Source: a candidate division FCPU426 bacterium (lineage in GTDB: Bacteria; Oederibacteriota; JAAXVQ01; JAUVAV01). Taken from it: DNA of 64,000 nt. The stretch spans positions 1,308,878 to 1,372,877 of the forward strand of contig JBFLYH010000001.1 of assembly GCA_040756875.1 (NCBI GenBank). The letters run 5' to 3'. The translations under genes and the position numbers were made by a program. How positions within the stretch are numbered: position 1 is the stretch's first letter; the number at the start of each line of letters is the position of its first letter. Under the pieces are notes generated by a model. That model was not told where the DNA came from, searched no databases, and worked only from the letters and a program-made list of their open reading frames with translations. Of the stretch, positions 1-52,138 are shown in pieces.

Positions 1-90
1 CACGTCCTCCCACACTGCCCGGCCGGTCACCGGCAAACTCAACAGCAGCGCGCAACCCATCAATACCTTCAGCCGAATGGACCCCTCCAT
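1..90 (-). CDS. 5' fragment of a probable secreted protein (runs off the window)
   Basis: ATG at 90 with GGTGAG upstream; translates MEGSIRLKVLMGCALLLSLPVTGRAVWEDV, which looks like a signal peptide. Confidence 0.55.
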   Translation of the reverse strand, partial: MEGSIRLKVLMGCALLLSLPVTGRAVWEDV

Positions 91-161
91 GCCGCTCACC
101 TGCTTTCCACGCTGGTATTATACCGCGGGTTTCAATAAAACCGTTGCAGAACCCGTCCAAT

Positions 162-297
162 TAGCAGGGTGCTGAAAAACCCATATATCATCCCCTAGCA
201 CCCTGCTACCCCATGAAAAATCTCTGATTTTTCATGGGGTATTCCATGCAACGCAATCGAAAAAGACCGCTCTGCGGGCTTTTTCATCAGCCTGTTA
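162..297. mobile_element. MITE-like element with imperfect terminal inverted repeats and nested palindromes
   Basis: TAGCAGGGTGCTGAAAAAC matches the reverse complement of the right end (TAACAGGCTGATGAAAAAG) at 15/19; internal perfect 16-bp IR at 207-241. Confidence 0.5.
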
Positions 298-325
298 GAC
301 TCATCCGCAAACTCCCAGGCTCCCG

Positions 326-1282
326 CTACTTGATGACCGCCACCTTGAACCGCTCTTCCCCGCCCGGCCCGGATAAAATCAGCACATAGATCCCGCTGGC
401 AACCTTTTGGCCTGACGAGGTGGTTCCGTCCCACTCCACGGCCTGCGGGCCGACAGCCAGGTCCTGGTCCAGCAGTGTGGATACGGGCCGGCCCTCGCGG
501 GAAAAAACCGCCACCCGGCAGCGGCCGGGCTGGTCGAGCGTGAATTCCAGACGCGCGCGTTCGAAACGGTTCAGATGCAGGGTGTTGTTCAGCAGGCGCG
601 CCTGGCTTACGGCCAGCGCGGTTTTGGCCGCGCCCTGGCGCTCCGGCTCGCCGGCCGCCGGCCTCAGGGGTTGCGGGGCGCGGGCCGTTTTCGGCTGGCC
701 GTGCAGCCTGGGGCCGCGTATCCGCGGGATTTCCGCAGCTGGCCGGGCTGCCTGTCCGGCGGTAGGAACCGGAATGGCGGCAGCCGCAACTTGCGGCGTT
801 TCCAGCCGGGCCGTGCGCGCCGGCGTGTAAACCGGGGTCAGCCGGGCCGTCTTTTCTTCGGCCGTCATTGCCGGCATCGGCGCCTGGGACTGGGCCGGCT
901 GCGGGGCCTGGACCAGGGTGACAACCGGCGGTTCGGGCGGATGCTGCAACACGCGATAGGTGGACAGGACCAGCGCAGCCGCGGCCGCGGCCACGCCCAG
1001 GGCGCCGAGCGTGGCCGGCACCCAGTGCCAGCGGTACGGCCTGGGCGCGGGCAAACCGCCGAGGCGCAGCCGCAACCGGTGGTTGAAATCCGCGGGCGCG
1101 CGCAGGGAGTAATCGCGGGCCAGGGCGCGCGACATCGCCTGCTCCCAACGGTCTTCGGCCGCGCACAGCGGGCAGTCGGCCAGATGGCGGCGCAGGCGCT
1201 CCTCCCGCCGGGGCGGAAGCGTTCCCGCCCGCCAGGCCGACAATTCCCTGCTCCAGGCCGGATCGTGCCGGGGTGGGGTCAT
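326..1282 (-). CDS. zf-HC2 anti-sigma factor with TM helix and C-terminal FlgD-Ig/T9SS-like domain
   Basis: HLADCPLC (HxxxCxxC), hydrophobic helix, Pro/Ala linker, WDG..SG..VASGIY..RFKVAVIK end; directly after an ECF sigma gene. Confidence 0.85.
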   Translation of the reverse strand: MTPPRHDPAWSRELSAWRAGTLPPRREERLRRHLADCPLCAAEDRWEQAMSRALARDYSLRAPADFNHRLRLRLGGLPAPRPYRWHWVPATLGALGVAAAAAALVLSTYRVLQHPPEPPVVTLVQAPQPAQSQAPMPAMTAEEKTARLTPVYTPARTARLETPQVAAAAIPVPTAGQAARPAAEIPRIRGPRLHGQPKTARAPQPLRPAAGEPERQGAAKTALAVSQARLLNNTLHLNRFERARLEFTLDQPGRCRVAVFSREGRPVSTLLDQDLAVGPQAVEWDGTTSSGQKVASGIYVLILSGPGGEERFKVAVIK

Positions 1283-1286
1283 GGGG

Positions 1287-1892
1287 TCACGGCTCCCGCC
1301 TCCAGGATTTCAGCAATCTGCGCAGGTCCTCGCGCGCGCGATACAGGCGCGACTTCACCGTGCCCTCGGGCAGGCTGAGAATCCGCGCCACCTCGGCGAC
1401 TTCCAACCCTTCCAGTTCCTTCAGGATCAGAACCTGGCGAAAACGGGGATCGAGCTGGTGGATGGCCTTGAGGATCATTTCCTTGGTTTCCTCCGATTGG
1501 GCCAGTTCCTCGGGGGTGGAGGGCCAGTGGACACCCATGGGTTCGCCGGCCTCCAGCGCGGCCGTGAACAGCGTCCGCCGGCGCGAAGACTTCTTGGACT
1601 GGGTGTAAACCAAATTGACCGCAATGCGGTACAGCCAGGTGTAAAAATTGGATTCCTGGCGGAATTTGCCCAAACTGCGGTAGGCTTTCACGAACGTTTC
1701 CTGCGCCAGATCCTCGGCCTCCTGGGCGTTCAAGACCATGTGATAGACCAGGGCGTACAAGCGGTCCCGATAACGGGTCACCAGGGCGTCATAGGCGTCG
1801 GCGTCGCCCCGCAGGGTGCGCGCGATCAGCTGGCGGTCAGGTTCCCGACTATCGTTTAGACTGGAAGGCTCAGGACGAGGTTCCCGGCTCAT
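1287..1892 (-). CDS. ECF RNA polymerase sigma-70 factor (RpoE-like)
   Basis: AEDLAQETF, FYTWLYRIAVN and GTVKSRLYRAR motifs. Confidence 0.95.
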   Translation of the reverse strand: MSREPRPEPSSLNDSREPDRQLIARTLRGDADAYDALVTRYRDRLYALVYHMVLNAQEAEDLAQETFVKAYRSLGKFRQESNFYTWLYRIAVNLVYTQSKKSSRRRTLFTAALEAGEPMGVHWPSTPEELAQSEETKEMILKAIHQLDPRFRQVLILKELEGLEVAEVARILSLPEGTVKSRLYRAREDLRRLLKSWRREP

Positions 1893-4800
1893 GGAAGTTT
1901 TTTACGGATGGTTTCCCAACGCTGGTGGAACAAGGTATTGTCCGGTTCCAGGGCCAAAGCCTCGCGGTAATGCCATTCGGCTTCGGACCAGCGCGCTTGG
2001 CGCTCCAGCAGCTGGGCCAGGTTGTAATGCACCACGGCCCAGTTGAGCGAAAGCAGTTCCCATTCGTACTTGCCCTGGGCGGACGGCGCCAAGGCCTGGA
2101 GTTCGAGGGCAATGCGCAGGCTGCGTTCGGCCTCGGGATAAGCCCGGCGCATTTCCTCGGCCAGGCCCAGGTTGCTCCAGGCCCCCGCATACCGGGGTTC
2201 CAGGTCCACGGCAATCCGCCAGGCACGTTCGGCCCCGTCCATGCGCCCCGCGTCCCGCAGCTGGTTGCCCAGTTCGAAATACAACGGGGCCTGGTGAGGG
2301 GCGCGCTCCACAGCCTGCCGGAAGGCGTTCTCGGCTTGGTCGTACAAGCGCTCGCGTTCTTCGCCGGCCAGGCGGCTGGCGCGAAGCCCCAACAGCACGC
2401 CGAGGTGGCGGTGGATGAACGCATCGCTTCCGTTGAGGGAGAGCGCCCGCCTGAAGGCCCAATCCGCCAGCTGGTACCAATTGTCCGCGTCCATCAGGGC
2501 GTACAGGTCGGTGCGCACCAGGCCCAGGCGGTCGTAGCCCCGGCTGGAGAGCGGATGCACGAGCAGCGCCCGCTCGTAGGCGCGGCTGGCGGCTTTCAAG
2601 TCTTGCTTATAGTGCAGCGCCTCACCCAACCGCTCCAAATACTCGCCCACCAGCGGGCGGGTCGCGGTCAGGGCCACGGCGGCCAGCAGCACGGCCAGCA
2701 GCACGGTGAGCGGCTGGCGGCCGTAAACCCGCCACAACTCGGGCCAGGACACTGGTTTGGACTTGGCGAACGGCGCGGCAGACGGCGGCGCGGTGGCCAC
2801 GCCGGCCAGCAGCATGTACCACAATAAAAGGCCCGGCACGTGCCAGTTGAAATCCAACAAAGCCTGCGCCATGGCCCCGGCCAGCCCGGCCCAGGCCGCG
2901 ATCCGGGCCGCAGCCTCCCAGGACGGCGGCTTGGCCGCCTCAAGCGGACCGGCGCGCCAATAGCGCCGGAAATGCCAGTACAACATCAACAGCCCGGTGC
3001 CCAGCAACAGCAGTCCGGGCAGGCCCGTCGCCGCGGCCATTTGCAGCGCTTCGTTGTGGGCGAACTCGGCCTGCTTGCCGTAGCGGGCCAGGCCGCGGAG
3101 GTTGGGAAAGCTGTAACGCTCGAAAGCGTCCGCGAAATTTCCCGGCCCCACGCCCAGGATCGGATGGTCCCGGATCATTTTAAGGGAAGCCAGCGCCAAT
3201 TGTGACCGCTCGTACGCCTGGCCGGAATAACCCTGCCAATCCCGCAGGCGGTTTCCGGCGGACATCGGCAGCAGCACCGCCAGAATGGCCAGCAAGGCTG
3301 CCGCGCCCAGGGCCGCTGAAAAATACCGCGAATGGCCCTGGCGCAGGCGCGCAAGCAGCAATCCGGTTCCGACCGCAAAATTCAGCAGGCCGGCCATGGA
3401 GCCTGTGGCCAGGAGGGCCAGAAAAACCAGGACGCCGCCGGCGCCGGCGGCCAGGCGCCAGTTCCGGCGCCAGGGAGCCCAGATGGCCAGGGCCGACAGG
3501 CTCAGCCCGCCCAGTGACAGGTACGCGGCCAGGATGTTCGGATTCGGCCAGCCGGCCGTGGCCCGCGCGCCGGCCGGAGCGGTCAGGCTCTCCCCCAGCG
3601 CCATCAGGGCCAGGGCCAGGGCGCCGGCGCCGGCCAGCGGCGCCAGCCAGGCGCCCAAATTCGCCGCGGTCGAAGCCAAGGCGAACACCACGAGCGCCAG
3701 CAGCCCCAGGCTCAGGCCGGTAATGGCGCCGGCCGGATGCGGAGAAGCCAGGGCCGACAAGGTGCTCCAGACAAACAGCATGCCCAGGGGCCAGCGCCAG
3801 GGCAAGCGGCGCAAGCCTTGTTCCCAATTCTGCCATTGCGTCAGCCGGGCCAGAAAAAACCACAGCAGCGCCGCGGCCGCCAGCCAATAGACTGTTCCCA
3901 TGACCACCAGGCTGCGTCCGGCCCGCCACAGCACCACGGTTCCCACCATGAAAAGGGTCCAGCGCAGCCAGGGTTCCCAGGGCGCAGCCGCGGGTTCGGG
4001 TTTGGATTTCTTCGAACCGGTCAGGCCGGCCAGGGTGCCTGCGAACAGCCAGAACGTGAGGCTGGTTTTTAAAAAATCCAGGTCCACGTCCACCAGCGCG
4101 TGCAGCAGGCCCGCCGCCAGGCCGGCTGCAAGCCCCAAAGCCAGGATGCGCTGGGGATGGTTTTTAATTTTGGAAAAGCCCTTCTTTGCATGCAGGCCCA
4201 CGGCGGCCGCCAGCCAGACAAACGCCCCCACGCCCAGCAGGCCGGTTTCAGCGAAGCGCTGCAGTAAAAAGTTGTGCGCATACCTTACAAAGGAACCGGA
4301 AAGGTGCTGATACTCGGGAAACAGGCTGCCGAAAACCCCGGGCCCCACGCCGGTCGCCGCATGCTCCCATCCCATGCGCAGCGTGCTGAGCCAGTTGAAC
4401 CCCCGGCTGACGAGATTCGCGGACAGCATTTGCGGATCGCGGGCCAGGATCAGGACCAGGGCCACGCCCAGGGCCAGGGTCGAACCCGCGGCCCAGACCA
4501 TCCAGGTCCGGACCCACGGCAGCCGGTCTTCGGACCCATGCTGCCACCAGAAAAAGAACAACGCCAGTCCGACGACGGCGGACATCCAGCCGCCCACTGA
4601 TCCCGTGGCGTACAGGCCCAGCATGACCAGCACCAGCCCCCCGGCCACCAGGACGGCGGCCCAGCGCCGGCGCGCGGTCAGCAACAGGGCGAAACCCAGC
4701 GGCAGAAACTGGCTGAGAAAACCCGCCAGCAGGTTGGGATAGACCAGGAGCGAGAAGGCGCGCCGCGAGGACAGGCGGCGGGCAATCTCCTCGTTTAAAG

Positions 4801-5290
4801 GGCCTTCGGGCGGGTTGACGCCGAAAACCTGCTGGTACGTCTGGGCCAGGCCGGTCACGTGCTGGTACAACCCGTACAGCGCCAGCACGGCCGCCACGCC
4901 GAACAGGGCCAGCAAGGCCGGGCGCGCCGTATGGACGGTGCGCGCCGTAAGCGTAGCGCCGAGAAACAGCAGGAGCAAGGCCAGCTCCCGCGCAAACGGG
5001 TTGATGCTCGCCGCCGGGTCCTGGGACCACAGTACGGACAGCGCCCAAGCGGCCGCGTACGCCAGAACCGCAGGGCCGAAGGCGACGGGCCCCTGGGTTT
5101 CCGTGTGGAAGGCCAGTAACAGCCACAGAAACGCGGCCAGCAGCAGCGAACCGAGCAGGAAAAGCGAGACGGTCTGCGGAAGGAAGGTTTGCGGAATCAG
5201 CAGTAAGGCGCCCACCAAGCCCGCAACGGCCCAAAAGCCGTTGCGGCTGACCCACCGGGGATACCAGTGGCCGAGCAGGAATGCGGTCAT
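1889..5290 (-). CDS. Membrane protein with two O-antigen ligase (Wzy_C)-like modules and C-terminal TPRs
   Basis: Duplicated motif sets PN(L/I)LA, GVGPG.F and AHN..LQ; many TM helices; TPR tail. Confidence 0.85.
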   Translation of the reverse strand: MTAFLLGHWYPRWVSRNGFWAVAGLVGALLLIPQTFLPQTVSLFLLGSLLLAAFLWLLLAFHTETQGPVAFGPAVLAYAAAWALSVLWSQDPAASINPFARELALLLLFLGATLTARTVHTARPALLALFGVAAVLALYGLYQHVTGLAQTYQQVFGVNPPEGPLNEEIARRLSSRRAFSLLVYPNLLAGFLSQFLPLGFALLLTARRRWAAVLVAGGLVLVMLGLYATGSVGGWMSAVVGLALFFFWWQHGSEDRLPWVRTWMVWAAGSTLALGVALVLILARDPQMLSANLVSRGFNWLSTLRMGWEHAATGVGPGVFGSLFPEYQHLSGSFVRYAHNFLLQRFAETGLLGVGAFVWLAAAVGLHAKKGFSKIKNHPQRILALGLAAGLAAGLLHALVDVDLDFLKTSLTFWLFAGTLAGLTGSKKSKPEPAAAPWEPWLRWTLFMVGTVVLWRAGRSLVVMGTVYWLAAAALLWFFLARLTQWQNWEQGLRRLPWRWPLGMLFVWSTLSALASPHPAGAITGLSLGLLALVVFALASTAANLGAWLAPLAGAGALALALMALGESLTAPAGARATAGWPNPNILAAYLSLGGLSLSALAIWAPWRRNWRLAAGAGGVLVFLALLATGSMAGLLNFAVGTGLLLARLRQGHSRYFSAALGAAALLAILAVLLPMSAGNRLRDWQGYSGQAYERSQLALASLKMIRDHPILGVGPGNFADAFERYSFPNLRGLARYGKQAEFAHNEALQMAAATGLPGLLLLGTGLLMLYWHFRRYWRAGPLEAAKPPSWEAAARIAAWAGLAGAMAQALLDFNWHVPGLLLWYMLLAGVATAPPSAAPFAKSKPVSWPELWRVYGRQPLTVLLAVLLAAVALTATRPLVGEYLERLGEALHYKQDLKAASRAYERALLVHPLSSRGYDRLGLVRTDLYALMDADNWYQLADWAFRRALSLNGSDAFIHRHLGVLLGLRASRLAGEERERLYDQAENAFRQAVERAPHQAPLYFELGNQLRDAGRMDGAERAWRIAVDLEPRYAGAWSNLGLAEEMRRAYPEAERSLRIALELQALAPSAQGKYEWELLSLNWAVVHYNLAQLLERQARWSEAEWHYREALALEPDNTLFHQRWETIRKKLP

Positions 5291-7114: not shown

Positions 7115-9043
7115 TCAGCGCATGATCGCCAGCTTGCCGCGCCGTTCCTCAGTTTCGGATTTAATGATGTAAATATACACGCCCGAGGCGACCCGCTTGC
7201 CCTGGCTGTTGGTCAGGTCCCATTCCACCCGGTTGCCGGGTGAATCTTTGTAGAATTCGCGCACCAGGCTCCCGCCCAGGTCGTAAAGCCGGATGACGCA
7301 GCGCCGCGTCAGGTTGAAGAAAACGATCTGGCCGCGCACATTCCTGTCCGTACGGAAGGGATTGGGATACACGATCATGTTCGACAGGTCCGCCGCCTCG
7401 ACGTTGGGGGTCGAAGTCAGCGTGAAAGTCGGGGTCAGCGTGATGGTCGGCGTCAAGGTCCGCGTGGGCGAAAGCGTGCTGGTTGGGCTCTGGGTAAACG
7501 TCGCGGAAATGGTCGGCGTGCGGGTAAACGTCGGCGTCACCGTAAAGGTGGAGGTTTGGGTCGCCGTGGGGGTAAAGGTGTCCGTCGGAGTGGTGGTGAA
7601 GGTCTGCGTGAAGGTCCGGGTCGGGGTTTCCGTGGGCGTGGCCGTAACCGTGTCTGTGGGTGTATGGGTGGCGGACTGAGTGAACGTCGCGGTGGAGGTC
7701 TGCGTCGGCGTGACCGTGGGCGTGGCTGTGCGGGTATAGGTCACGGTATCGGTGGCGGATTCGGTGGCCGTGGGCGTCACGGTGGGAGTGGGCGTGGAAG
7801 TCCGCGTAGGAGTGGCGGTAGAAGTCTCTGTAACCGTGTAGGTCTGGGTAGGCGTGGGCGTGATCGTCAGGGTGGGCGATTCGGTGAACGTCGGGGTGCG
7901 GGTAAAGGTCGGTGTATAGGTGGAGGTGGCCAAAGGCGTGTACGTGGGGGTGCTGGTCAGCCAGACATATTCGTAAATATTGTTGTCGGCCGAGGCGACG
8001 TACAGGCAGTTGTAGTTCGCGCCTTCGCGCCCGATGCCGGCCGCCATACCGTATAAGGCGCCACCGGAATCCGCCACCAGGGTCGAGGACCACGAAGCGC
8101 CGTTCCACCGGTATTCGTACGTCGCGCCGTCGTTGAAGCCGGCATACAGGCGCGTGACCCCGTCGTTGCGGACGTCGCCGATGGTCAAGCCGCGGCAGGT
8201 GTTGTTGTTGCCTCCCGGGCCGCCGATCGAGGACCCTGACCAGCTGCTGCCGCCCCAGACGAATTCCCACACCACGCCGTCATTGTGCCCGGCGTACACG
8301 TAATTGTTGCTGTCGCCATTGCGCCCTTTGCCGACCTGCACCACGTTGAAATTGTCTCCGCCGTTGCCCATGTCGGTTTGGCTGTAGGCGCTGCCGGTCC
8401 AGGTGTGCTCGTAGACGTGGTTGTTCAAGCTCGCGATGTACAGCCGAGGCACCAGGTCGTTCCGTCCATAGCCCAAGGCCACGGACACCGCGTCATCGCC
8501 CACATCCGTTCCGGCGTTATTGCTCAAATACATCGAAAAAAAACCGTTCCACTCAAATTCCTTGACGAAATTATCCGCGCTGCCCGTATAAATAAAATTC
8601 GAGGGATTTAAATTCCTGCCTTTGCCAACCACGCAGCTTAGCAGATTTTGCGACAGGCCCGAAGTTTGATACATTTCCCAGGAAGTGCCGTTGTAAAAAT
8701 AATCCATCAAACGGTTATTGTAGCCGCTGGCGTAAATGCGCGCTTCCCCGTTATTCCGGCCCTCACCCACCGCCACGCCGGACAGAATGTCCCCGGTGGC
8801 CGTGCCCACCGTCCCGCCGTTCCACCCGAAGCCATCCCACTGGTATTCATGCAAATACTGGTCGTCGCCGACCGCATAGAGATAAACGCCCGCAGAACCA
8901 TCCCGCCCCGCGGTCACGGTTACATCGCGGAAAGTGTTCGTTCCGCTGATGGTGTTCAACTCCCAAACAGCCAGAACCGTCGACGGCAATCCTGTTAAAC
9001 CAAGAGCTGGGATCAGGATCATGGTCATTGCGAACTTGTGCAT
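7115..9043 (-). CDS. Secreted beta-propeller-like protein with Thr/Pro stalk and T9SS-type CTD
   Basis: Signal peptide; repeats of G.GRN....lY.g..D..v.Ey.W.G.sW; TPT stalk; YPNP...VASGVY...GKLAIMR. Confidence 0.85.
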
Positions 9044-9115
9044 GCAGCGCACTCCTCTTGACGGATGTCCTTATTTTTGCACACCCGTCTTAAAAAGCAA
9101 AGCCGGTTTTTATCT

Positions 9116-11092
9116 TCAGCGGAGAATGTAGATTTTTCCGGTTTTTTCCTCCCGCAGGGTCTTCAGCACGTAAATGTACAGGCCCGAGGCCACGGCCCGC
9201 CCCTGCCGGTTGTCCAGATTCCAGACCAGACGGTTTCCGGGATCATCCTTCTGGAACTCCCTCACCAACCGCCCGTCCAGGGTGTAAATCCTCACCACCA
9301 CCCGGCTGGGCAGTTGCATGAAGACGACCCTGGCCGACGGATAAAAATCGCTGCGGTAGGGATTCGGATAAACGATCACATGCGCCAAATCGCTTGCCGC
9401 CACGTTAGGCGTCTCCGTGAACGTCGGCGTGATCATGGGCGAGTCGGTGGGCGTGGGAGTCACTGTGCGCGTCGGCGAGATGGTGGACGTGACGGTGATG
9501 GTCGGTGTCGCCGTATACGTGGGTGTGCACGTGAATGTCGGCGTGGCGGTACGGGTGCGCGTAATCGTCCGCGTCGGGGTGATCGTGAAAGTTACGGTAA
9601 TGGTATCCGTGGGCGTGGCGGTATAGGGCGGCGTGTGCGTGCGTGTGGGCGTGATGGTGAAGGTTTGGGTGATGGTGGGCGTGGCGGTGAAGGTCGGCGA
9701 AGCGGTGAAAGTCGGGGTAATGGTGAACGTGGGAGAGGATGTGGGCGTATCGGTGAACGTCGGCGTGGAAGTGGCCGTGCTGCTGATGGTGGCCGTGGGC
9801 GTGGCAGTGGACGTGGCCGTAAAAGTGGCGGATTCCGTGGCCGTAGAACTGTGCGTAGACGTGGGCGTGACGGTCCGCGTGGGCGTGACGGTCGCGGAAT
9901 CCGTAGCGGTCGGCGAGGCTGTGCGGGTCGGGCTGGGGCTGGGCGTCAGGGTGGGGGTCGGGGTGGCGCGGGCTGTTTCGGCGGAAATCGCGGAAAACGC
10001 GCCGGGATCGCGCTGGTTGTAATAGGACGTGGAAATCCAGGTGTCGGAAACCGCCGCGGCGTAAACCCGGACCTCGTCCACCAGACCGTCCAGGTACCGG
10101 CTGGTGTCGGCGTTGCGGGCGATATTGAAATTGGTGGAGGTATTATTGATGCGCGAGGCGCTGCCAGTGGCCGTCTGTTTGACGCCGTTGACGAAAAGTG
10201 CAACTTCGTGCCCGCCGGCCAAATTATACCTCCCCACCAGGTGATACCAGGTATTGGTTGTGGCGGCGCTATTGCTGGTGGCTTCCCGCCACCAGGTTCC
10301 GTCATAGATCACGAAGATCATGTTATTGCTCGTAACGCCGCTTTTTTGCAAGGCGTATTGCGTATCGCCTTTGGTGACAATTTCATGAAAGGTATTCACG
10401 CCCAGTGTGTCGAACCGCACCCAGGCCTCGATGCTGAGCGGCACGTCGCCATTGCGGTCCAGTGCCGAAGGTTCGCCGTGATCGATGTATCCTGTCGAGC
10501 CGTTCGGATGCTGGCAGCGCCAGATCGGGCCGTATTCCGCGCCGGGCAAATTGCCGTAAAAAGTCCCATCCGCGTTGTTGGCCGTGCTGTCGTTCGCGCT
10601 GCCGGAAGACTCTCCCAAATGCCACACCCCGGCGAAAATGGACGCGTTCCAGGTCCCGGTCTGATTGGGTTCGTTGGCAGCCGCGTAGCCGTAATACATG
10701 TAAATCGTCGTCGCAATCGAACCCGAAAGGTTGGGGATCCTCACCCAGGCTTCCAGGCTGTTGCCGGCGGCGTCGTAAGCGGCGATTTCGCGGTCCAATT
10801 TAGTGGTTTCCGAACCGTCCGTAAAAATGATATCCATGTTGCTTACGGTGTTTTTTTGCACATGGGAGAAAAAAGTGGAATCCAGATCGGCCTCGGTGAT
10901 TAAAACCGGAAAATTGGCTTGGTCGCCGGTGACTTGCGCCGGATCAATGGTAATTTGGCGTTTGTACTGGTAGTTGGCGTCGAACCAGGCTGCCCAGCCC
11001 GTTTCAACGCCGCCTGCCAGAAGCAACACTGCCAAAAAAAACCTGGTCGGCTTCATCTTTTTCCGATTTCTCCCCTTGGTTTGAATTTTCAA
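9116..11092 (-). CDS. Secreted DUF2341/LamG-like protein with Thr/Pro stalk and T9SS-type CTD
   Basis: YKRQITID..NFPVLI, AWVRIP, WYHLVG and DGLVDEVR motifs; same tail as its neighbours; start could be 11056. Confidence 0.85.
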   Translation of the reverse strand: MKIQTKGRNRKKMKPTRFFLAVLLLAGGVETGWAAWFDANYQYKRQITIDPAQVTGDQANFPVLITEADLDSTFFSHVQKNTVSNMDIIFTDGSETTKLDREIAAYDAAGNSLEAWVRIPNLSGSIATTIYMYYGYAAANEPNQTGTWNASIFAGVWHLGESSGSANDSTANNADGTFYGNLPGAEYGPIWRCQHPNGSTGYIDHGEPSALDRNGDVPLSIEAWVRFDTLGVNTFHEIVTKGDTQYALQKSGVTSNNMIFVIYDGTWWREATSNSAATTNTWYHLVGRYNLAGGHEVALFVNGVKQTATGSASRINNTSTNFNIARNADTSRYLDGLVDEVRVYAAAVSDTWISTSYYNQRDPGAFSAISAETARATPTPTLTPSPSPTRTASPTATDSATVTPTRTVTPTSTHSSTATESATFTATSTATPTATISSTATSTPTFTDTPTSSPTFTITPTFTASPTFTATPTITQTFTITPTRTHTPPYTATPTDTITVTFTITPTRTITRTRTATPTFTCTPTYTATPTITVTSTISPTRTVTPTPTDSPMITPTFTETPNVAASDLAHVIVYPNPYRSDFYPSARVVFMQLPSRVVVRIYTLDGRLVREFQKDDPGNRLVWNLDNRQGRAVASGLYIYVLKTLREEKTGKIYILR

Positions 11093-13152
11093 CGCAAAAG
11101 GTATATTTTACCGGTCTTTTTCTCCCGGATGGTCTTGACCACGTAAATATACGCCCCGGAAGCCACGGGCCGCCCGTGCCGGTTTTCCAGGTCCCAAACC
11201 ACCCGGTTCCCGGAATCGTCCTTCTGGAACTCCCTGACCAGCCGGCCATCCAGGGAGTATATCCGTAAGACTGCCCGTCCGGGCAATTGGATGAACACGA
11301 TGCGGCTGACCGGATTCAAATCCCCCCGGAAGGGATTCGGATAGACGATCACATGGGACAGATCGTCGGCCGGCACTTCGGGTGTCATGCTAGGCGTCAC
11401 GGAGACCCATGGCGTCTTGGTGGGCGTAGGTGAGTCCGTGCGCGTGGGCGAGATAGTCGGCGTCGGGCTGATAGTCGGGCTCGCGGTATGCGTGGGCGTG
11501 ATGGTGGCGGTCCGTGAAATCGTGAACGTGGGTGTTACGGTCCGCGTGGGCGTGATCGTGAAAGTGAGCGTAATCGTATCCGTGGGTGTGGCCGTGTAGG
11601 GCGGGGTGTGCGTACGCGTGGGCGTGATGGTCGGCGTCTCAGTGATCGTGGCCGAAATGGTGGCCGTGGGCGAAATGGTGGCGGTAGGTGAAATGGTGGG
11701 AGTCGGCGAAATCGTATACGTCGGGCTGCACGTGGGCGTGCCCGTAGGCGTGCCCGTCGGGGTGGGCGTATGGGCAAGCGACGTGATGATAAAATAATCT
11801 CCCTGGTTCAAATTCACGGTGGCGGTCCACACCCCGCCGGCTTCGGTCATGGAAAACGGCGCCGCGCCGCTGGTGAAATCGCCGTCCGCATCCGTATAGA
11901 GAACCAGATTGCTGCCCGCAAAAGGCGGCAAGTCCGCGGCATTGACAGACACTTTAACCAGGCCGACGTCCCCGGCTTCCCGCACGCGCCACTGCCGGAC
12001 CAGGCGCCGGGTTCCGGTCGGCGCCGCAGTCCCGCTCCAGGCAGCGATGCTGCCGCCGTCGTCGCCGAAGCAAAGAAACTCGCGGTCGCTGATATCCACC
12101 CACGCAGGCGAGCCATTGCTCCCCTCGTTGTCAGCCTCCAGCGTCAGGAGCGAGGAGGCTTCGATGGATTTGGATTTGACCTGCGCCAATCCGGAGGTGT
12201 CGTCGCGCCCAATGCCGGTTATGTCATTCACGTAAGTACTGAAACCCAGATTCGTCATGGTGCAAAATACGCTGCCGCCGCTATCCGTGTAATCCCCCGA
12301 TGCCAGGGTTATTCCGTATTTCAGGGCCAGATACGACTCCACCTGCCGCCGCTCCGAGGCACTCAAGGCCCGGTCGTAAATCACGATTTCCGACACCCGG
12401 CCGTTGAACATCTCGGTCAAATTGGGGCGGGCGCCGATGCGCTGATTGCCCGACCCGTGATTCCGGCTGGTGCTCGAATGCGTGCCCCGGGTCTGGCCAT
12501 TGCAAAATATTTCCCGTCCGCTGCCGCTGTCATTGTACCAATACGTGCCCACCACCGGAATTCCAGCCGCCAGCAGATAGTCGACCGAGTGCAGGTCATT
12601 GGCGGTCCCGTACCAGGCGTCCACCTGGTCGTAATTGTCGCCGCCGCCGAACCACAGTCGCTGGTTGTTCGATTCATTGCCGCCTGAAACCACGGGCTGC
12701 CAATTGCCGTTGTTCACGTAAAACGCGAGAAACCCGGTATAGCTCCCTCCGCCGCTGGTCAGGGCGCTGTTCGGCAGATTAATGTAGTCGTTGCCGTCTA
12801 AATCCACGGCCGGGTTGAAATTCATGCTCTGGGTTTGCCGGTTGGGGTCCGAAGACACGGAAGTGGAATTGTAACCGTTGCCCGATTGGTCGGCCCAGGC
12901 GGTGACATTGTTGCTGCCGTCCACCAGGACCCCGGCATCGGCCTTATACCAGACATGCAGATTGGAGCTGACGCCGCCCGGCGAGGCGGCGATAACGGTG
13001 CCGGCAGTCAAGAGCCACATGGCGGCGCCCAGACAGACACGTCGCCAGCAGAATAAGCCCCTGCCTGGCGGCAGTAGGATCGCGTCGAGAATCCCGGGCC
13101 GGGTGGTCTGTGCCGAAAACTTTTCAGCGCGTTCCTTCGTCAGCTTTTTCAA
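11089..13152 (-). CDS. Secreted LamG/ConA-like protein with Thr/Pro stalk and T9SS-type CTD
   Basis: PGGV...WYKAD, EIVIYDRALS..ER..VESYLALKYGITL and GIGRDD motifs; TTG start after GAGGA. Confidence 0.85.
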   Translation of the reverse strand: MKKLTKERAEKFSAQTTRPGILDAILLPPGRGLFCWRRVCLGAAMWLLTAGTVIAASPGGVSSNLHVWYKADAGVLVDGSNNVTAWADQSGNGYNSTSVSSDPNRQTQSMNFNPAVDLDGNDYINLPNSALTSGGGSYTGFLAFYVNNGNWQPVVSGGNESNNQRLWFGGGDNYDQVDAWYGTANDLHSVDYLLAAGIPVVGTYWYNDSGSGREIFCNGQTRGTHSSTSRNHGSGNQRIGARPNLTEMFNGRVSEIVIYDRALSASERRQVESYLALKYGITLASGDYTDSGGSVFCTMTNLGFSTYVNDITGIGRDDTSGLAQVKSKSIEASSLLTLEADNEGSNGSPAWVDISDREFLCFGDDGGSIAAWSGTAAPTGTRRLVRQWRVREAGDVGLVKVSVNAADLPPFAGSNLVLYTDADGDFTSGAAPFSMTEAGGVWTATVNLNQGDYFIITSLAHTPTPTGTPTGTPTCSPTYTISPTPTISPTATISPTATISATITETPTITPTRTHTPPYTATPTDTITLTFTITPTRTVTPTFTISRTATITPTHTASPTISPTPTISPTRTDSPTPTKTPWVSVTPSMTPEVPADDLSHVIVYPNPFRGDLNPVSRIVFIQLPGRAVLRIYSLDGRLVREFQKDDSGNRVVWDLENRHGRPVASGAYIYVVKTIREKKTGKIYLLR

Positions 13153-13233
13153 GTGATATTCCTCGTCTCGAAGGCTGTAATTGCACCCCCGCCCCTGCCG
13201 GTCACCCCGACCCGCCCGGCCGCTTGCTCCGAA

Positions 13234-14778
13234 TCAACGCATGATGAAGATCGTTCCGGTCTTTTTCTCCCTCGGCGTCTTCAGCACGTAAACATAGGCG
13301 CCGGAGGCCACCAGCCGTCCCTGGCGATTCGTCAAATCCCACTCCGCCCGGTTCCCCCCATCATCCTTGCGGATTTCCTCCACCAGCTTGCCGTCCAGGG
13401 TATAGATCCTGATAAACACCTGCCTTGGCAGCTGGATGAACACAATCCGGCCGTTGCGGTTCAGGTCGGCGCGATAGGGATTGGGATAAACGATCACGTG
13501 CGCCAAGTCGCCCGCCGCCAGATTCGGCGTGTCCGTGGGCGTGGCGGTAACCACCGGCGAATGGGTCGGCGTGGGCGTGACCGTCAGGGTGGGCGTAATC
13601 GTGGAAGTGCGGGTGATGGTCGGCGTGACCGTGTAAGTCGGCGTGGCGGTAAAGGTCGGCGTGCGCGTAAACGTCCGCGTAATCGTCCGCGTCGGGGTGA
13701 TCGTGAAAGTAATCGTGATCGTATCCGTCGGAGTGGCCGTATAAGGCGGCGTGTGCGTGCGCGTGGGCGTGATCGTGAAAGTCTGGGTGATGGTGGGCGT
13801 GGCCGTGAAGGTCGGCGTGGCCGTGAAGGTCGGCGTCACAGTGTACGTCGGCGTGGCCGTAGGCGTGTCGGTGAACGTGGCCGTGGGCGTGGCCGTGCGC
13901 GTCACCGTGGCTGTGGGCGTGGCTGTGCGTGTGGCTGTAAATGTGGCGGACTCCGTGGCCGTGAACGTGGCTGTGGGCGTGGGTGTGACGGTCCGTGTGG
14001 TGGTGGCGGTTGCTGAATCTGTAGCGGTCGGAGATTCAGTGAAAGTCGGGGTAACGGTTCGGGTGAAGGTAGGCGTGCCCGTGGAGGTGAAAGTCGGGCT
14101 CAGCGTAGCCGTCGGCGACGTGGTGGCTGTAAAAGTCCTGGACGACGTGGGGGTGAAAGTGGGTGTATTGGCAGGGGTATTCGTCACCGTAAACGTTAGT
14201 GTAGCGGTGAACGTGCGCGTAATTGTGGGGGTATAGGTCGGGGTGGGCACTACTTCCGAAGCGTAGATGCAGAGCCTGCGGCCCCAATAAAAATCAACTG
14301 TACCGAAAGGATTGGTAAACGCACCGTAACTCATGTCATGACCGGCGCTTTTCATGTTGTCAAAATCAGCAAAGTAGGCTAAATCCACGGTATTATTGCT
14401 GTCATCCGTTTGCATGGAAAGCCAATATGTCGTCCCATTCGTAACCGTGGTTGACGGAATGACAAACTCGTTCCAACCGGTGGACAAACCCTGCGAAGTG
14501 CTTTCAGCCAACAGAGCTCCCGGCGTATTGAGAAGCCCGCCGGCATATAAAGCAACGCGGCCGTTATCCCCAAACCCGACGCCACCAAGATACATATAAA
14601 TGCGGTTTACAGTGCCAGTCCCGCCATCATTGACAAACTGGGTCGCGCGCTGTCGCCCATCCAAATTGTTTATATAGGAAGCACCACTGGTGCTAGTTTC
14701 ACCGAATGTAACTGCCCACAGGGTTTGCGGCAGAATTTGGCAGCTAATTATTGAAATTAAAATGAATAAACGTTTCAT
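13234..14778 (-). CDS. Secreted protein (unknown head) with long Thr/Pro stalk and T9SS-type CTD
   Basis: Signal peptide MKRLFILISIIS; stalk of about 240 aa; YPNP...VASGAY...GTIFIMR. Confidence 0.85.
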   Translation of the reverse strand: MKRLFILISIISCQILPQTLWAVTFGETSTSGASYINNLDGRQRATQFVNDGGTGTVNRIYMYLGGVGFGDNGRVALYAGGLLNTPGALLAESTSQGLSTGWNEFVIPSTTVTNGTTYWLSMQTDDSNNTVDLAYFADFDNMKSAGHDMSYGAFTNPFGTVDFYWGRRLCIYASEVVPTPTYTPTITRTFTATLTFTVTNTPANTPTFTPTSSRTFTATTSPTATLSPTFTSTGTPTFTRTVTPTFTESPTATDSATATTTRTVTPTPTATFTATESATFTATRTATPTATVTRTATPTATFTDTPTATPTYTVTPTFTATPTFTATPTITQTFTITPTRTHTPPYTATPTDTITITFTITPTRTITRTFTRTPTFTATPTYTVTPTITRTSTITPTLTVTPTPTHSPVVTATPTDTPNLAAGDLAHVIVYPNPYRADLNRNGRIVFIQLPRQVFIRIYTLDGKLVEEIRKDDGGNRAEWDLTNRQGRLVASGAYVYVLKTPREKKTGTIFIMR

Positions 14779-14936
14779 TTCAGCCCGCCTAATATGCAAA
14801 ATTACTTCATATTTAGTATACCAAAATATTTTCAATGGCACCAATAATTCTATTTTACGCGCCCTCAATAAAATCATTATTTTAAAAGGTTTTCCAGGCG
14901 GATCACAAGGATGGTTCTTCGCAATATTTAGTGTAG

Positions 14937-38552: not shown

Positions 38553-41500
38553 TTATTTTATTAATGCAATCTTTTTAAGTACCTTTTCTTCTGCACCATT
38601 GGCAGCACGAGCTTTAACCAGCAGAAAATATACCCCATTTGCCAGATTGCTCATGTTTACGCTCTCGATCTGCATCCCAGTTGAATAATTGCGGTTGAAA
38701 GACATAACCTCTTTATTGGTAATTGTATACATCTTTACCGATACCTCAGCCGGTTGCAGGGTCATGATATGTATTTTGGCAATATGGCCCCGAATGGGAT
38801 TGGGAGCGGCATAGACATAATTTTTGGAAATAATTTGACCGTCAAAGTCCGGAACCGGAGTCTTGGTCGGCGTAGGGGTAGGCTGGGAGTGGCTGGCTTT
38901 AATCTGATAGACATGGCTGTCTCCGGCCAAGGCGTACAATTCCAATTGATAGTCATTGTCGCCATCACCCGAAACCAGCGCATAAAGTTCCGCAGGCGCA
39001 CTGCCCAGATCCTGGTTTGACCATTGGCTGTTTGCATACTTACATTGGCAAACATGGCCGTTGATTGCGGCGATGTAAACTTCTTGAGTCCCGTCATTGT
39101 CAGCATCACCAACCAGCAAATCCCGGCTGGTCTGATCAGCCACCTGGGTGATATTCCAGAAAAAGGTTGATGTCCATTTGCATTGGTAGATTTTGCCATC
39201 CAAGTTAGTGCAATATACTTCATTGCTGCCATCCTGATTGCCGTCGCCAATAGCCACGGACAGCATATCATCCCCGCCAGTAGCTACTATGGTTTTGGCC
39301 CAAGTCGAGCCATTGAATTTTAATTGGTATAGGTTTTTATCCTCGCAAGCCACATACACTTCGTTCTCTCCATCCTGATTGCCATCACCCACGGCAAGAT
39401 CCATCATCTTTCCTGTCGCGTTTCCGATAATATTGCTGGACCAACCGGTGCCATTATACTGGCTTTCAATCACATCCCCGTTTTCGGTGGCAATATAGAG
39501 TTCTAAAATATCATCATTATTCCCATCGCCATACGCAAGAGCGTTAACCGCATACCCTAAATCGCCGCTGTCTTCCCGATTAACCCAATTCGTCCCGCTA
39601 AACCCATACACATGATGGTCCAAAGTCGATCCGTAAACCTCATTTTGTCCGTCATTGTCTTTATCAAAGACAATCACATCGGTATAGTACTCGCCGATAG
39701 GGCCGGTTGGCAATTGGGTAATTCCCCAGTCAGACGCTCCGGTACATTTATACTGCAAAAGATTCTGCAATAACCCAGCCGAATACAATTCCCTCTGCCG
39801 GTCATTATTCCCGTCGCCCAGCGTCAACCCACGCCGAATCGAAGTTTGCGCAGTTATACCGGCTTGCCCCAAGTCAGCCACAGTCCAGTTAATCGGCGGA
39901 ACAATTTCCGAAATAATCGTCAACGCATTCTGCAACTCGGATTGTGAACCGGGTATCTGCGCTTGCACATTATAATTACCAGCCGGGAGGCCTGTTAGGT
40001 CGAAACTGCAGGTTGCCAATTCCTGGCTGACAATATTAATGCTGGTCGCAGCCCGATCAGTCACACCGGATTTAACCAGTTTAATGGTAAGGGGATTTTG
40101 TAATGCCTTGCCGCGTAGTGTGAAAGTCCCTGCCCGATTGGAATAATAGTATTCCGGCGCCAAGGAGTGTACTAGGACTTGGGTAGCCGGAGTGGCGGTT
40201 GGGGTTGGAGTCTGGGTGGGCGTGACAGTCGGTGTTGGCACTTGAACCAATTGGTTCAATGAAAACCCAGATGAATTTCCGCTGCTATCCGTGGCAATGG
40301 CGCATACATATTCTCCGCCTGATAGGCCGGTTGGCACCAGGCTCCAGTTGCCCGAGACCGCAGTAGTAGTGCCGACGCTCCTTAAGCTCCCTCCATATTG
40401 ACCTGCACCTCGATCGGAAATAAACACTTCAATGAAATCATTTGATCCACTAGTAGTTCCTTGTATTAAGGCCACGTCTGCCGGTGATAAAATAGCAGGG
40501 GAAGCCTTATTCTGATTAGCGCCATCACCAGCTAAAGATATACCTGCCGTGCTAAAATTGCATATAGTGTTACCAACGAATTCATTGTAATCGCTATTTA
40601 CGCCAGAAATGGAAATACCCGTCCCAGTACCTCGAATTAAATTGCCGCTATTTGAAATACTCCGCCGGCCAATAAAACCCGTCTGTGAGTTGCTGTCAAT
40701 TACAATACCTGATGTAAGATTTTGCGAAGGGTAATTATAGTTCGGGAGCAACCCGAGTAAATTGTTATAAATAGTTGTGTTCATGGAACCGGCAACTCGG
40801 ATTGCCGTACCAGTTCCACAAATCACATTCCTTTTCTCAATAGACGTCCCACCTATTTCGGTATTATTTGTATTCTGCACAAAAATGGCGTAAGTAGTAT
40901 TTGATACTTGACCTGTACCGCTCGCATTCGTACCAATATAATTACCCCATATTTGTGTATTGTGTGCGTTTTGACTTAAATAAATGCCATAAGGATTTCC
41001 CGAAATAACATTTCTTAATTCAGATGAAGGTCCACCGATTAAAGTATTTACACTCCGATCATCATTGATGCCATAAGATGTATTTGGCACCGCGGCATTG
41101 CCTGCAGCATTTAATCCAATATAATTACCTGCAATTGTATTTCCACCACCATAATATAATCCAATACCACTTTGATTTCCCGAAATAATATTGCCATACA
41201 AACTGCCACCGCTTATTTCAAATCCGCCAATTAAATTGTCATATCCATTATTTATATAAATCCCCCTCTGATTACCTGCGGATGCCGAGCCATCAACTGT
41301 TAATCCAATATAATTCCCACAAATGGTATTATTAGAACTTTGATAAACTTCAATTCCTGCATAACTATTATTACTAATTATATTTTTGTTATATTGTCCG
41401 GCGCTTCTGACTCCACCAACGACGCAAGCAATAGTATCGTGTATATAGAGTCCTCGCATCCCCCCAAAAGTTCCGTTTGATTCCGAAAGACCTATTAAAT

Positions 41501-42368: not shown

Positions 42369-42458
42369 ATTTATTTCCCCTTTTTCATTGTATCAATTGT
42401 TGTATATATATAATTGTTTAGACTGGATTAAGCCACTTTCAATGCGTTTATTCATAAA

Positions 42459-42487
42459 AAAAGGGCGGCTCGGATGAGCCGCCCTTG
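42459..42487 (-). terminator. Rho-independent terminator
   Basis: AAGGGCGGCTC/GAGCCGCCCTT stem followed by a U-tract on the minus strand. Confidence 0.8.
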
Positions 42488-42507
42488 ATAATCATTAAAA
42501 AATAGTA

Positions 42508-43938: not shown

Positions 43939-43959
43939 GAGATCACGCTCCTCAGCATG

Positions 43960-45732: not shown

Positions 45733-45792
45733 GTGCCCTCCCTCCTTCACGCCTGAATGCGGCGCGGGGTGTGTGGCAATGAATTCAGGGCA

Positions 45793-45831
45793 TGGTCCCA
45801 GCCTGCCGGCAAAGCCGGCAGGCTGGGACCA
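45793..45831. terminator. Perfect 18-bp hairpin between the two cassettes
   Basis: TGGTCCCAGCCTGCCGGC-AAA-GCCGGCAGGCTGGGACCA; no U-tract. Confidence 0.5.
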
Positions 45832-45838
45832 CTAATGC

Positions 45839-47290: not shown

Positions 47291-47310
47291 CGGTTCGCGC
47301 TCCTTTCCGA

Positions 47311-49095: not shown

Positions 49096-49333
49096 GTAGT
49101 GTCCTCCTTTCAAGGCTCTATTATGATTTAAGTTGCTATTAAAAACCTTTTGGGAAGCCCCCTCCTCTCATCTTTTTCGATAGGTTGAATGGCTGTTGAA
49201 ACGCAGAGATTCCTTTTTAAGCTAATACCCGAATAATTGCAACCTTTTTTTTACAATTTTTAAAACCTCGTTCTTCGCTTTTGAAATCGTACGGTTGTAT
49301 AATAAATGCCAAGTCCGCGAAAGGCGCGAGCGC

Positions 49334-51013: not shown

Positions 51014-52138
<1,125 letters not shown>

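Follow-up and report, generated by a model that had tools for sequence, protein, structure and literature searches.

That the state of secretion can control an anti-sigma factor is known from FlgM, the soluble anti-sigma factor of sigma28, which is itself exported. RsiW, encoded directly after the ECF sigma factor SigW (structure 5wuq), has an N-terminal anti-sigma domain with the motif H-x3-C-x2-C followed by one membrane helix, and is subject to regulated proteolysis. In FecI-FecR-FecA and SusC-linked signalling, an outer-membrane barrel and the anti-sigma factor whose periplasmic end touches it share one locus, which is under the control of the sigma factor. The Dma anti-sigma factors span both the inner and the outer membrane and, according to the available part of the source, are restricted to Bacteroidota (PMC10927553).

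Type IX secretion supplies the other systems for comparison. In Flavobacterium johnsoniae, as described in the accessible portion of PMC10994853, the type-A tag is a terminal beta-sandwich of about 90 aa with a G-x-Y strand and a near-invariant lysine near the C-terminus; in the solved system it lies in the SprA pore on the loops of PorV, with the remaining substrate at the periplasmic rim. In Porphyromonas gingivalis, PorA, which bears a tag and interacts with PorV, feeds the PorXY-SigP pathway, SigP being an ECF sigma factor of secretion genes; PorA is a secreted surface protein acting via a two-component system, and SigP has no tag-bearing anti-sigma factor in the text available (PMC7712824). 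Neither PorA/PorXY-SigP nor Dma places a tag on the anti-sigma factor itself, and in the literature on anti-sigma factors and type IX secretion no paper was found that describes the logic of a tag-bearing anti-sigma factor.

The locus considered here lies at one end of a 64,000-nucleotide stretch of DNA (the window) from a candidate division FCPU426 bacterium. In it, the gene for an ECF sigma factor is followed after 4 nt by a co-oriented gene for an anti-sigma factor with a tag-type C-terminal domain. The relevant features, in window coordinates unless a contig position is given, are these:

1889..5290, minus strand: context gene for a membrane protein of 1133 aa carrying two stretches of Wzy_C (O-antigen ligase-like) and, at its C-terminus, TPRs (Pfam)
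1287..1892, minus strand: ECF sigma factor, 201 aa (Pfam, NCBIfam)
326..1282, minus strand: anti-sigma factor, 318 aa, complete gene with its stop codon at 326-328 (ORF, Pfam, AF2 model)
1043..1282, minus strand: cytoplasmic anti-sigma domain, residues 1-80, with H33-x3-C37-x2-C40 (zf-HC2)
947..1021, minus strand: single membrane helix, residues 88-112 (AF2 model and a hydrophobic run in the sequence)
611..946, minus strand: disordered Ala/Pro-rich linker, residues 113-224, about 115 aa (AF2 model)
329..610, minus strand: tag-type beta-sandwich, residues 225-318, ending in ASGIYVLILSGPGGEERFKVAVIK (FlgD_ig, phmmer, AF2)
298..323, minus strand: candidate ECF-type promoter of the cargo gene, GGAGCC-N18-GTCTAA (alignment with locus L032)
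1..99, minus strand: first codons of a tagged cargo gene of 612 aa; whole gene G000:C1:1307138-1308976 (TIGR04183)
G000:C1:1305077-1307077, outside the window: PorV-like, FlgD_ig and OmpA fusion gene of 666 aa, following the cargo gene (PorV_fam)

The sigma factor is recognized by Pfam (Sigma70_r2 at 8e-19, r4_2 at 6e-16, Sigma70_ECF at 8e-8) and by the NCBIfam model sigma70-ECF (106.6 bits, cut-off 42.9). The start codon of its gene shares bases with the stop codon of the Wzy_C/TPR gene upstream (ATGA), to which it is translationally coupled; the same Wzy_C/TPR neighbour recurs within the bacterium's own family and order, and an upstream TPR coding sequence is present in loci L001 and L032-L035. 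In the anti-sigma factor the motif H33-x3-C37-x2-C40 is seen directly in the sequence, zf-HC2 (PF13490) covers residues 12-40 with 26.4 bits (curated Pfam cut-off 22.2), and H33, C37 and C40 are invariant across 55 anti-sigma sequences. Full-length relatives comprise six close and more than 50 distant proteins, and the family profile matches RsiW (5wuq_C) at 1.4e-10 as well as RslA, RsrA and ChrR. The AF2 model runs from a helical N-terminal domain through the membrane helix and a disordered stretch to a beta-sandwich. The linker, modelled at pLDDT 46-64 and free of secondary structure, is 22% Ala and 18% Pro, and it has a mean pairwise identity of only 0.13 among the 55 sequences, yet a length of 109-154 aa throughout, 116 in the window's protein. 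The gene at 326..1282 is thereby shown to encode a zinc-motif, RsiW-like, single-pass anti-sigma factor, the predicted partner of the adjoining sigma factor, and ORFs, Pfam and AF2 all agree with the architecture given in the original prediction, which was drawn from this DNA before the present analysis. In contrast to RsiW, it carries outside the cytoplasm a secretion-tag domain at the end of a long disordered linker. Pfam finds no FecR domain in the anti-sigma factor (E<=1) and neither a FecR domain nor a TonB-dependent transducer among the module neighbours; the AF2 model has no outer-membrane-spanning part, the C-terminal part being an 8-strand soluble sandwich of about 90 aa.

That sandwich, at residues 225-317, is modelled at pLDDT 96-98. 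The original prediction took such domains for T9SS sorting signals and proposed sorting-tag profiles as a check, and here the outcome is divided: FlgD_ig is borderline over residues 242-300 (25.7 bits against a cut-off of 27, and 28.7 bits in a six-frame search), while TIGR04183 and PF18962 give no match in the window's anti-sigma factor at E<=1, let alone at their curated cut-offs, a difference from the F. johnsoniae tags. The resemblance to the tails of the genome's own proteins is well beyond chance. In phmmer searches against all genome ORFs, residues 226-318 match the extreme C-termini of large ORFs (best 3.8e-15), and an iterated profile collects 101 ORFs with a copy ending at most 5 residues from the C-terminus, among them the anti-sigma factor (53.6 bits). 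The other 100 are predicted secreted proteins, and many of the 101 also pass TIGR04183. The anti-sigma tag aligns end to end with the cargo tags, and a lysine occupies position -6 (K313 in the window protein) in most anti-sigma tags (66 of 75) as well as most cargo tags (69 of 100). Always at the exact C-terminus, with the terminal K-x-x-V-I-K of the tag family kept, the anti-sigma tag groups with terminal tags rather than with internal copies of the same domain, and it is the best conserved part of the anti-sigma factor (0.33, versus 0.23 for the N-terminal domain), with a fixed length of 86-88 aa, 87 in the window's protein. In the own-genome tag tree the anti-sigma factor falls in a clade of 13 tags (FastTree support 0.86; UFboot 81 in IQ-TREE on a 49-sequence subset of the 101); ten of the 12 other members are cargoes with a PorV-like gene adjoining, and one of those ten is the anti-sigma factor's own neighbour. 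Searches and tag trees together confirm, at the level of sequence, that the anti-sigma tag belongs to the same family as the cargo tags of the genome, as had been predicted. The tail originally named as its closest counterpart, at 61612-62205 on the minus strand, is indeed the best match within the window (3.1e-9); four tails from other parts of the genome match better still.

A structure search places the PorU tag 6za2_A on top (Z 11.0, rmsd 2.6 over 92 aa) with about 50 unrelated Ig-like chains within 1.7 Z, and PorZ (5m11) at Z 9.8, level with many unrelated Ig-like chains. Two other accounts of the domain were considered and rejected. A recent copy of the neighbouring cargo's tag is contradicted by the tree, in which three clades, almost free of other tags, hold 67 of the 75 anti-sigma tags; and a FlgD hook-cap function by the match being confined to the Ig-like part (254-307), whole-protein scores being 14-21 bits against cut-offs of 230-383. 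Nor is the protein a type IX cargo, since its N-terminus is a cytoplasmic anti-sigma domain and then a membrane helix (Pfam, AF2) rather than a signal peptide and an exported passenger. Carried by such an inner-membrane protein, the tag cannot be released as cargo.

The two genes that follow encode a tagged cargo and a candidate carrier. The 612-aa cargo protein has a signal peptide, a Thr/Pro linker and a TIGR04183 match of 23.9 bits (cut-off 23). In the fusion protein behind it, PorV_fam (PorV/PorQ, NF033709) covers barrel residues 31-306 with 131.8 bits (cut-off 90), and a FlgD_ig domain also occurs internally, in the periplasmic part. Gene order was compared in 21 loci from 18 genomes and nine families of the phylum, counting genes in a same-strand run with gaps below 700 nt. 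An ECF sigma gene lies directly upstream of the anti-sigma gene in 21/21, a PorV-like gene is in the run in 20/21 and a tagged cargo gene in 18/21, counts that overstate independence in that the loci are mutually related. At one locus of the phylum, L033, the pair has no barrel or cargo gene nearby. The 17 module barrels form one clade, separate in the tree from 29 of 30 other own-genome paralogues, and the pair is present beside one of the 31 cargo-linked PorV-like genes of the genome. Several relatives hold two or three paralogous modules. The module cargoes are diverse and include glycan-binding and GH8 proteins; the barrels carry an OmpA peptidoglycan-binding domain in the bacterium's own family and lack the OmpA part in distant relatives. 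From gene order and barrel phylogeny, sigma factor and anti-sigma factor are shown to head a conserved module that also contains a dedicated PorV-like barrel and a tagged cargo. The predicted tie to a PorV-like gene is therefore upheld, but the partner is the barrel next door, outside the window, and not the gene at 50050-51096 first proposed.

The rest of a type IX-like machine is partly recognizable. The genome encodes a SprA-family translocon (224 bits, cut-off 200) and a PorU-like protein, at G000:C2:430911-434477, with a tag of its own; GldK has no match in it, nor do GldM and GldL, for which control genomes are equally silent. Like F. johnsoniae, it has a SprA-family protein and a PorV-family barrel gene beside a tag. 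Unlike it, the genome has about 41 PorV-like genes, 31 of them adjoining a cargo gene, and this one-barrel-per-cargo-gene organisation is unlike the single-PorV model worked out in Bacteroidota. Multiple PorV-like genes occur in 99/99 genomes of the phylum, so their co-occurrence with a tagged anti-sigma factor is uninformative.

Contact between the tag and a PorV-like barrel, which the original prediction proposed to check by co-folding, is supported by a co-fold with the module barrel. Barrel residues 29-312 and tag residues 226-318 give 0.89, against 0.00 for the best of three controls, which were unrelated proteins only and leave the result silent on specificity for the module barrel versus the 40 others. 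Of 157 solved complexes 116 reach the mark applied, as do 2 of 215 mismatched pairs, rough counts given that own alignments were used. At least 95% of the contacts are common to the runs, with partner pLDDT of at least 89, and the modelled interface includes the ASGIY strand and K313, so that Lys313 and the last strands lie on the barrel. The pass may reflect only a likeness to solved PorV-tag complexes. The loops of PorV that bind tags are on the outer side, and a tethered tag would therefore need to enter the translocon.

A shared ECF promoter, also named as a check in the original prediction, is apparent in the relatives. Ten of 25 module cargo genes have the motif GGAAC-N16-18-GTC at a distance of 30-120 nt upstream, versus 0.93% of random windows, and in four loci it also precedes the sigma gene by 44-51 nt, with the extended form AATAAxTGGAAC...TGTCA in common. 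Loci L037 and L051 are examples with clear motifs. The window's own locus has degenerate copies only. Its candidate at 298..323, immediately behind the anti-sigma stop codon, differs from GGAAC at one position and is weak alone; in the same-genus locus L032 the aligned sequence at this place is GGAACC-N18-GTCAAT. Three promoter patterns scanned over the own genome (8, 358 and 26 matches) show no enrichment before tag or barrel genes, and that scan gave no sign of a regulon that takes in the translocon or further cargo genes. Of the sequencing data listed as containing the locus, one set is DNA, possibly from the source sample, and none is RNA.

In a search for related loci nearly all matches are tag-only cargo from many phyla, beside one same-genus full-length locus and two distant anti-sigma loci. 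Both sigma/anti-sigma-tag pairs examined outside the phylum, L078 in a Zixibacteria MAG and L101 in an FCB-group MAG, have neither a barrel nor a cargo gene within 3 kb, and their tags pass Por_Secre_tail (PF18962; 37.9 and 35.6 bits, cut-off 27). The Zixibacteria-type family has about 96 full-length relatives, of which 89 of 96 carry the anti-sigma zinc motif; where they have public names, these are 'T9SS type A sorting domain-containing protein' and similar. Not all tag-bearing proteins in FCB-group genomes, then, are cargo.

We give a probability of roughly 0.5 to a trans-envelope switch specific to one cassette. The tethered tag would dock on the module's PorV-like carrier as a cargo tag docks on PorV, possibly inside the SprA-like translocon, which the linker appears long enough to reach. 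By this contact the anti-sigma factor would be informed, across the envelope, whether the carrier is free or occupied by cargo; the sigma factor would most simply be released by cleavage of the engaged anti-sigma factor and then intramembrane proteolysis, as for RsiW. Once freed, it would activate its own operon as well as the cargo gene through the common ECF promoter, and cargo supply would be matched to one delivery route. The switch might be on with an empty carrier or on with a blocked one. Such a logic would resemble that of FecI-FecR-FecA and SusC-linked signalling, with the difference that the barrel belongs to the PorV/FadL type and that contact would be made by a secretion tag. As in Dma, the anti-sigma factor of an ECF sigma factor would reach the outer membrane, but in this module it terminates in a soluble tag and a gene of its own encodes the barrel. 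The idea that secretion state controls an anti-sigma factor is shared with FlgM, although the present protein is membrane-anchored. In a more specific form, which we think unlikely, the tag would act as a decoy substrate: it would enter the SprA-like translocon, settle on the module carrier and be cut there by the PorU-like sortase.

The original prediction went further, making the tag a decoy for the general translocon that could signal how heavily loaded or how far assembled the whole machine is, much as FlgM signals a completed hook. A machine-wide checkpoint would accommodate an anti-sigma tag that is an ordinary member of the genome's tag family, and also the Zixibacteria and FCB-group pairs that stand apart from barrel and cargo genes. 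Within the phylum, however, nearly every locus ties the pair to one barrel lineage, with one cargo-linked barrel of 31 so equipped in this genome; paralogous modules would be needless for a single global sensor; and the promoter motif of the relatives precedes the module's own cargo gene, whereas the own-genome scan gave no wider regulon. The link is to one cassette, and a sensor of the whole machine now seems quite improbable.

The tag might instead be a generic periplasmic sensor, an Ig-like domain from an abundant pool that binds a glycan, peptidoglycan or a periplasmic protein, while the sigma factor merely regulates adjoining surface-protein genes. Its closest solved structures by sequence are FlgD Ig-like domains (1.9e-10), the fold is common to many adhesin and enzyme domains, and the internal FlgD_ig copy in the fusion protein and the variety of the cargoes point the same way. 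Such a sensor would not be expected to stay C-terminal with its K-x-x-V-I-K, to cluster with tags instead of internal copies, or to be co-inherited with a barrel lineage, and the co-fold model puts its conserved strand and lysine on the barrel; we hold this reading doubtful. Fixed linker length with free sequence, the OmpA peptidoglycan-binding domain on the own-family barrel and the precedent of Dma factors spanning both membranes (PMC10927553, available part) would all suit a structural tether, a two-gene counterpart of Dma in which the barrel keeps the anti-sigma factor constantly attached to the outer membrane and the anti-sigma factor senses envelope spacing or outer-membrane damage rather than cargo. 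It leaves unexplained a tagged cargo gene with a sigma-type promoter in the module, and the barrels of distant relatives lack the OmpA part; a tether of this kind is very unlikely.

As for novelty, the original statement that no such regulator has been described holds for a tag on an anti-sigma factor, with PorA/PorXY-SigP and Dma as partial precedents. If the decoy-substrate form of the cassette-specific switch were true, the secretion machine would be the first protease of an anti-sigma cascade, transcription of the cargo would be gated directly by the free capacity of a private export route, and type IX-like secretion would have a FlgM-like checkpoint, maybe widespread across FCB-group phyla. 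The matching of type IX-like secretion to cargo supply is understood mainly for the PorXY-SigP pathway, and this family would connect a sigma factor physically with a carrier barrel and a secretion tag, in a way open to direct test. The architecture of the locus suggests that expression of a cargo gene is wired to the delivery route of that same cargo.

At the start of the window, an ECF sigma factor gene is followed by the gene of an anti-sigma factor that ends in a type IX-style beta-sandwich domain of the FlgD_ig / Por_Secre_tail class. Such a C-terminal domain is called a tag here, and a predicted secreted protein that carries one is called a cargo. The genes and sites concerned are as follows (window positions unless stated otherwise).

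1889-5290, minus strand: 1133-aa Wzy_C/TPR membrane protein with two Wzy_C stretches
1287-1892, minus strand: ECF sigma factor, an ordinary member of its class
326-1282, minus strand: anti-sigma factor
298-323, minus strand: weak candidate promoter GGAGCC-N18-GTCTAA, directly after the anti-sigma stop codon
1-99, minus strand: first codons of the next gene, a 612-aa cargo lying mostly outside the window (signal peptide, Thr/Pro linker, TIGR04183 tag at 23.9 bits vs 23)
G000:C1:1305077-1307077 (same contig, outside the window; 9078-11078 of L001, the own locus), minus strand: 666-aa PorV-like barrel fusion (barrel 131.8 bits vs 90)
After the barrel fusion, outside the window: 597-aa protein of no known family, then sugar-nucleotide and glycosyltransferase genes
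50050-51096, minus strand: PorV-like gene inside the window

The anti-sigma protein has a zf-HC2 match above the curated cut-off (motif H33-x3-C37-x2-C40), a predicted helical N-domain, one membrane helix (residues 88-112), a disordered Ala/Pro-rich stretch (113-224) and a predicted eight-strand beta-sandwich (225-317; pLDDT 96-98). The profile of its family matches both the solved RsiW anti-sigma domain (1.4e-10) and, by sequence, the FlgD Ig-like domain (1.9e-10).

The original prediction held that this tail groups with the cargo tags, and comparison within the genome bears this out. Residues 226-318 match the extreme C-terminal residues of large ORFs (phmmer, best 3.8e-15), and an iterated profile finds the domain in 103 proteins, lying no more than 5 residues from the C-terminus in 101 of them, including the anti-sigma factor. 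The other two are a 7689-aa giant, the sole case with internal copies, and a weak match 15 residues from the C-terminus. The anti-sigma tail aligns with cargo tags end to end, sharing the V-A-S-G-I-Y strand and the terminal K-x-x-V-I-K, and a lysine at -6 is found in 66/75 anti-sigma and 69/100 cargo tags; a near-C-terminal lysine is described as near-invariant and functionally important in type-A tags (PMC10994853). Membership in the genome's own tag family is thus clear by sequence, but it is borderline with curated models: FlgD_ig reaches 25.7 bits where the cut-off is 27 (a six-frame search gave 28.7), and the curated-model search gave neither TIGR04183 nor PF18962 in the window's anti-sigma factor, only a PorZ-tail fragment. 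TIGR04183 has 72 matches in the genome, many among the tag-bearing ORFs. The best structural match of the predicted model is the PorU tag (6za2_A; Z 11.0, rmsd 2.6 over 92 residues, 21% identity), followed by the PorZ tag at Z 9.8; because about 50 other Ig-like chains score Z 9.3-10.5, the fold alone decides nothing on tag identity.

Among the tags of its own genome, that of the anti-sigma factor falls in a clade with 12 others, 10 of them from barrel-linked cargoes (support 0.86 with FastTree; UFboot 81 on a subset of tags). In a tree of 209 tags, 67 of 75 anti-sigma tags form three nearly pure clades, which indicates that the anti-sigma tag is old and dedicated rather than newly copied from the cargo next door.

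Other tags occur within the window. The closest to that of the anti-sigma factor, as had been predicted, belongs to a 197-aa protein at 61612-62205 (minus strand) that has little beyond a signal region and the tag (FlgD_ig 31.5 bits) and no PorV-like gene beside it. Four tandem tag-bearing genes at 7115-14877 (minus strand; 645, 658, 687 and 547 aa, two with Laminin_G_3) have tags that form their own sub-clade. A low-GC stretch at 38553-49113 (minus strand; 0.44 at 40-44 kb vs about 0.6 elsewhere) may be acquired DNA. Besides a 1271-aa FG-GAP/NosD protein, in which Por_Secre_tail scores 30.2 bits, it has four ORFs, and Big_5 domains occur in two of these.

Searched against 1.84 billion representatives, the anti-sigma family profile gave 34,827 matches at E<=0.001, a number explained by the occurrence of the tag everywhere. 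The best 150 of these, together with earlier matches, include 70 proteins of 270-370 aa, and 57 of the 70 carry an N-terminal H-x3-C-x2-C. The other 13 (P0052, P0072, P0079, P0084, P0086, P0099, P0113, P0122, P0124, P0128, P0135, P0137 and P0140) lack this motif and align with the profile from around position 60 through the tag, or in some cases just over the tag end; their N-domains may be of a different type, or their starts mis-called. At least 31 of 99 genomes of the phylum contain a near-full-profile match (38 such rows among the matches listed), and some contain two or three.

Purpose-built profiles, applied to about 19 kb around each of 20 matches (chosen for long contigs and for spread over families) and to the own locus, establish a conserved module of sigma factor, anti-sigma factor, barrel and cargo. 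The sigma gene lies directly upstream of the anti-sigma gene in 21/21 loci, and the same-strand run includes a PorV-like gene in 20/21 and a tagged cargo gene in 18/21; in L033, the locus without a PorV-like gene in the run, the next gene is on the opposite strand. In the own family and order the genes run sigma, anti-sigma, cargo and barrel-OmpA fusion; distant families have a 300-aa barrel after the anti-sigma gene and then a giant cargo of 1200-1800 aa, and in three loci the barrel directly precedes the sigma gene. The cargoes are mutually unrelated (NHL/Kelch propellers, GH8 with CBM11, leucine-rich repeats, DUF11, a PQQ-type propeller), and the 17 barrels from modules make up a single clade that excludes 29/30 other barrels of the own genome. 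In the 666-aa fusion the PorV-like barrel spans residues 31-306, FlgD_ig lies internally at 362-414, and the OmpA domain at 548-645 is of the peptidoglycan-binding kind. Internal matches to FlgD_ig recur in several more of the genome's long PorV-like ORFs.

At the own locus, the stop codon of the Wzy_C/TPR gene overlaps the sigma start, coupling the module translationally to that gene. Epimerase, GT9, GT2 and methyltransferase genes lie downstream (L001 3163-6846), surroundings that may hint at cargo being attached to glycan or LPS. The 226-nt gap between anti-sigma and cargo genes (about 100-325, minus strand) contains a hairpin that, with its T run, resembles a terminator, and also two inverted repeats, one of them perfect over 15 bp (ACCCCATGAAAAATC / GATTTTTCATGGGGT); at the same-genus locus the gap is just 70 nt, without hairpin or inverted repeats.

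A search for a shared ECF promoter had also been suggested, and a motif of this kind is recognizable in distant relatives. The motif AATAAxTGGAAC-N16-18-(T)GTCA lies 44-51 nt before the sigma gene in four distant loci (L037, L038, L046, L051) and 54-75 nt before the cargo gene in L037, L038, L039, L040, L042, L044 (twice), L046 and L051. The core GGAAC-N16-18-GTC occurs 30-120 nt upstream of 10/25 module cargo genes vs 350/37,521 random windows, with 38 sense vs 12 antisense matches in 377,736 nt. This placement fits a sigma factor that drives its own operon and cargo gene. At the own locus the evidence is weak: the candidate there aligns with GGAACC-N18-GTCAAT of the same-genus locus, and a motif scan across the own genome gave no regulon. 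A further motif, GGAACC-N14-15-C[CA]AGTC with varying spacer, lies at sigma codons 3-11 (1859-1884, minus strand) in 5/5 own-family/order loci (L001, L032-L035); it may serve as a sigma-type promoter within the gene, or may just reflect conservation of an R-E-P...S-S peptide.

The genome (3.2 Mb; completeness 100% by the tool's figure) encodes a 2111-aa SprA-family protein (224 bits vs a cut-off of 200) and, under the cut-off at 84 bits, a PorU-like protein that has a tag of its own. GldK has no match in it, nor do GldL and GldM, for both of which control genomes were silent too. The system could be motor-less and type IX-like, or its motor proteins too divergent to detect. PorV-like genes are numerous, as in all 99 genomes of the phylum, each of which has several. 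With 41 of the 44 PorV_fam matches used (three fragment rows were left out), a tag-bearing gene is found no more than 600 nt from 31/41, usually with the PorV-like gene directly downstream of it, and 35/101 tag genes have a PorV-like neighbour within that distance. The organisation is one barrel per cargo.

When the neighbouring barrel (residues 29-312, 21-row alignment) was co-folded with the tag (226-318, 55-row alignment), the score was 0.89, against 0.00 for the best of 3 controls; the mark is reached by 116/157 solved complexes and 2/215 mismatched pairs, counts that are only rough here because our own alignments were used. At least 95% of contacts are shared between runs, with partner pLDDT of at least 89. 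The predicted interface includes barrel residues 83-87 and 113-131 and, on the tag, K313, its last strand and the A-S-G-I-Y strand. Because PorV-tag complexes have already been solved, the pass may reflect only likeness to them, and is silent on specificity.

Classical FecR-FecA signalling is among the nearest systems. The nearest in the literature found are PorA feeding PorXY-SigP (PMC7712824) and the Dma anti-sigma factors spanning both membranes (PMC10927553). These come close enough to temper the original prediction that no described regulator has this logic; literature searches found no paper describing an anti-sigma factor that bears a type IX tag.

The original prediction was that the tag, as a cargo mimic, could report the load or assembly state of the T9SS-like machine. 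Such a machine-wide checkpoint keeps some weight from a Zixibacteria and an FCB-group MAG, in which an anti-sigma factor of greater length (480-512 aa), its tag passing PF18962, sits beside a sigma gene with only housekeeping genes around; about 96 full-length relatives of this type exist, 89 with the zinc motif, and public names, where given, call them tag-bearing or FlgD-domain proteins. In the present phylum the link appears to be to one cassette. We prefer a cassette-specific switch, because such a regulator accompanies only 1 of the 31 cargo-barrel pairs of the own genome, a single genome can contain several paralogous modules, and anti-sigma factor and barrel lineage are inherited together. 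We infer that in such a switch the tethered tag would dock on the module's own PorV-like carrier, and that the state of this carrier would control release of the sigma factor.
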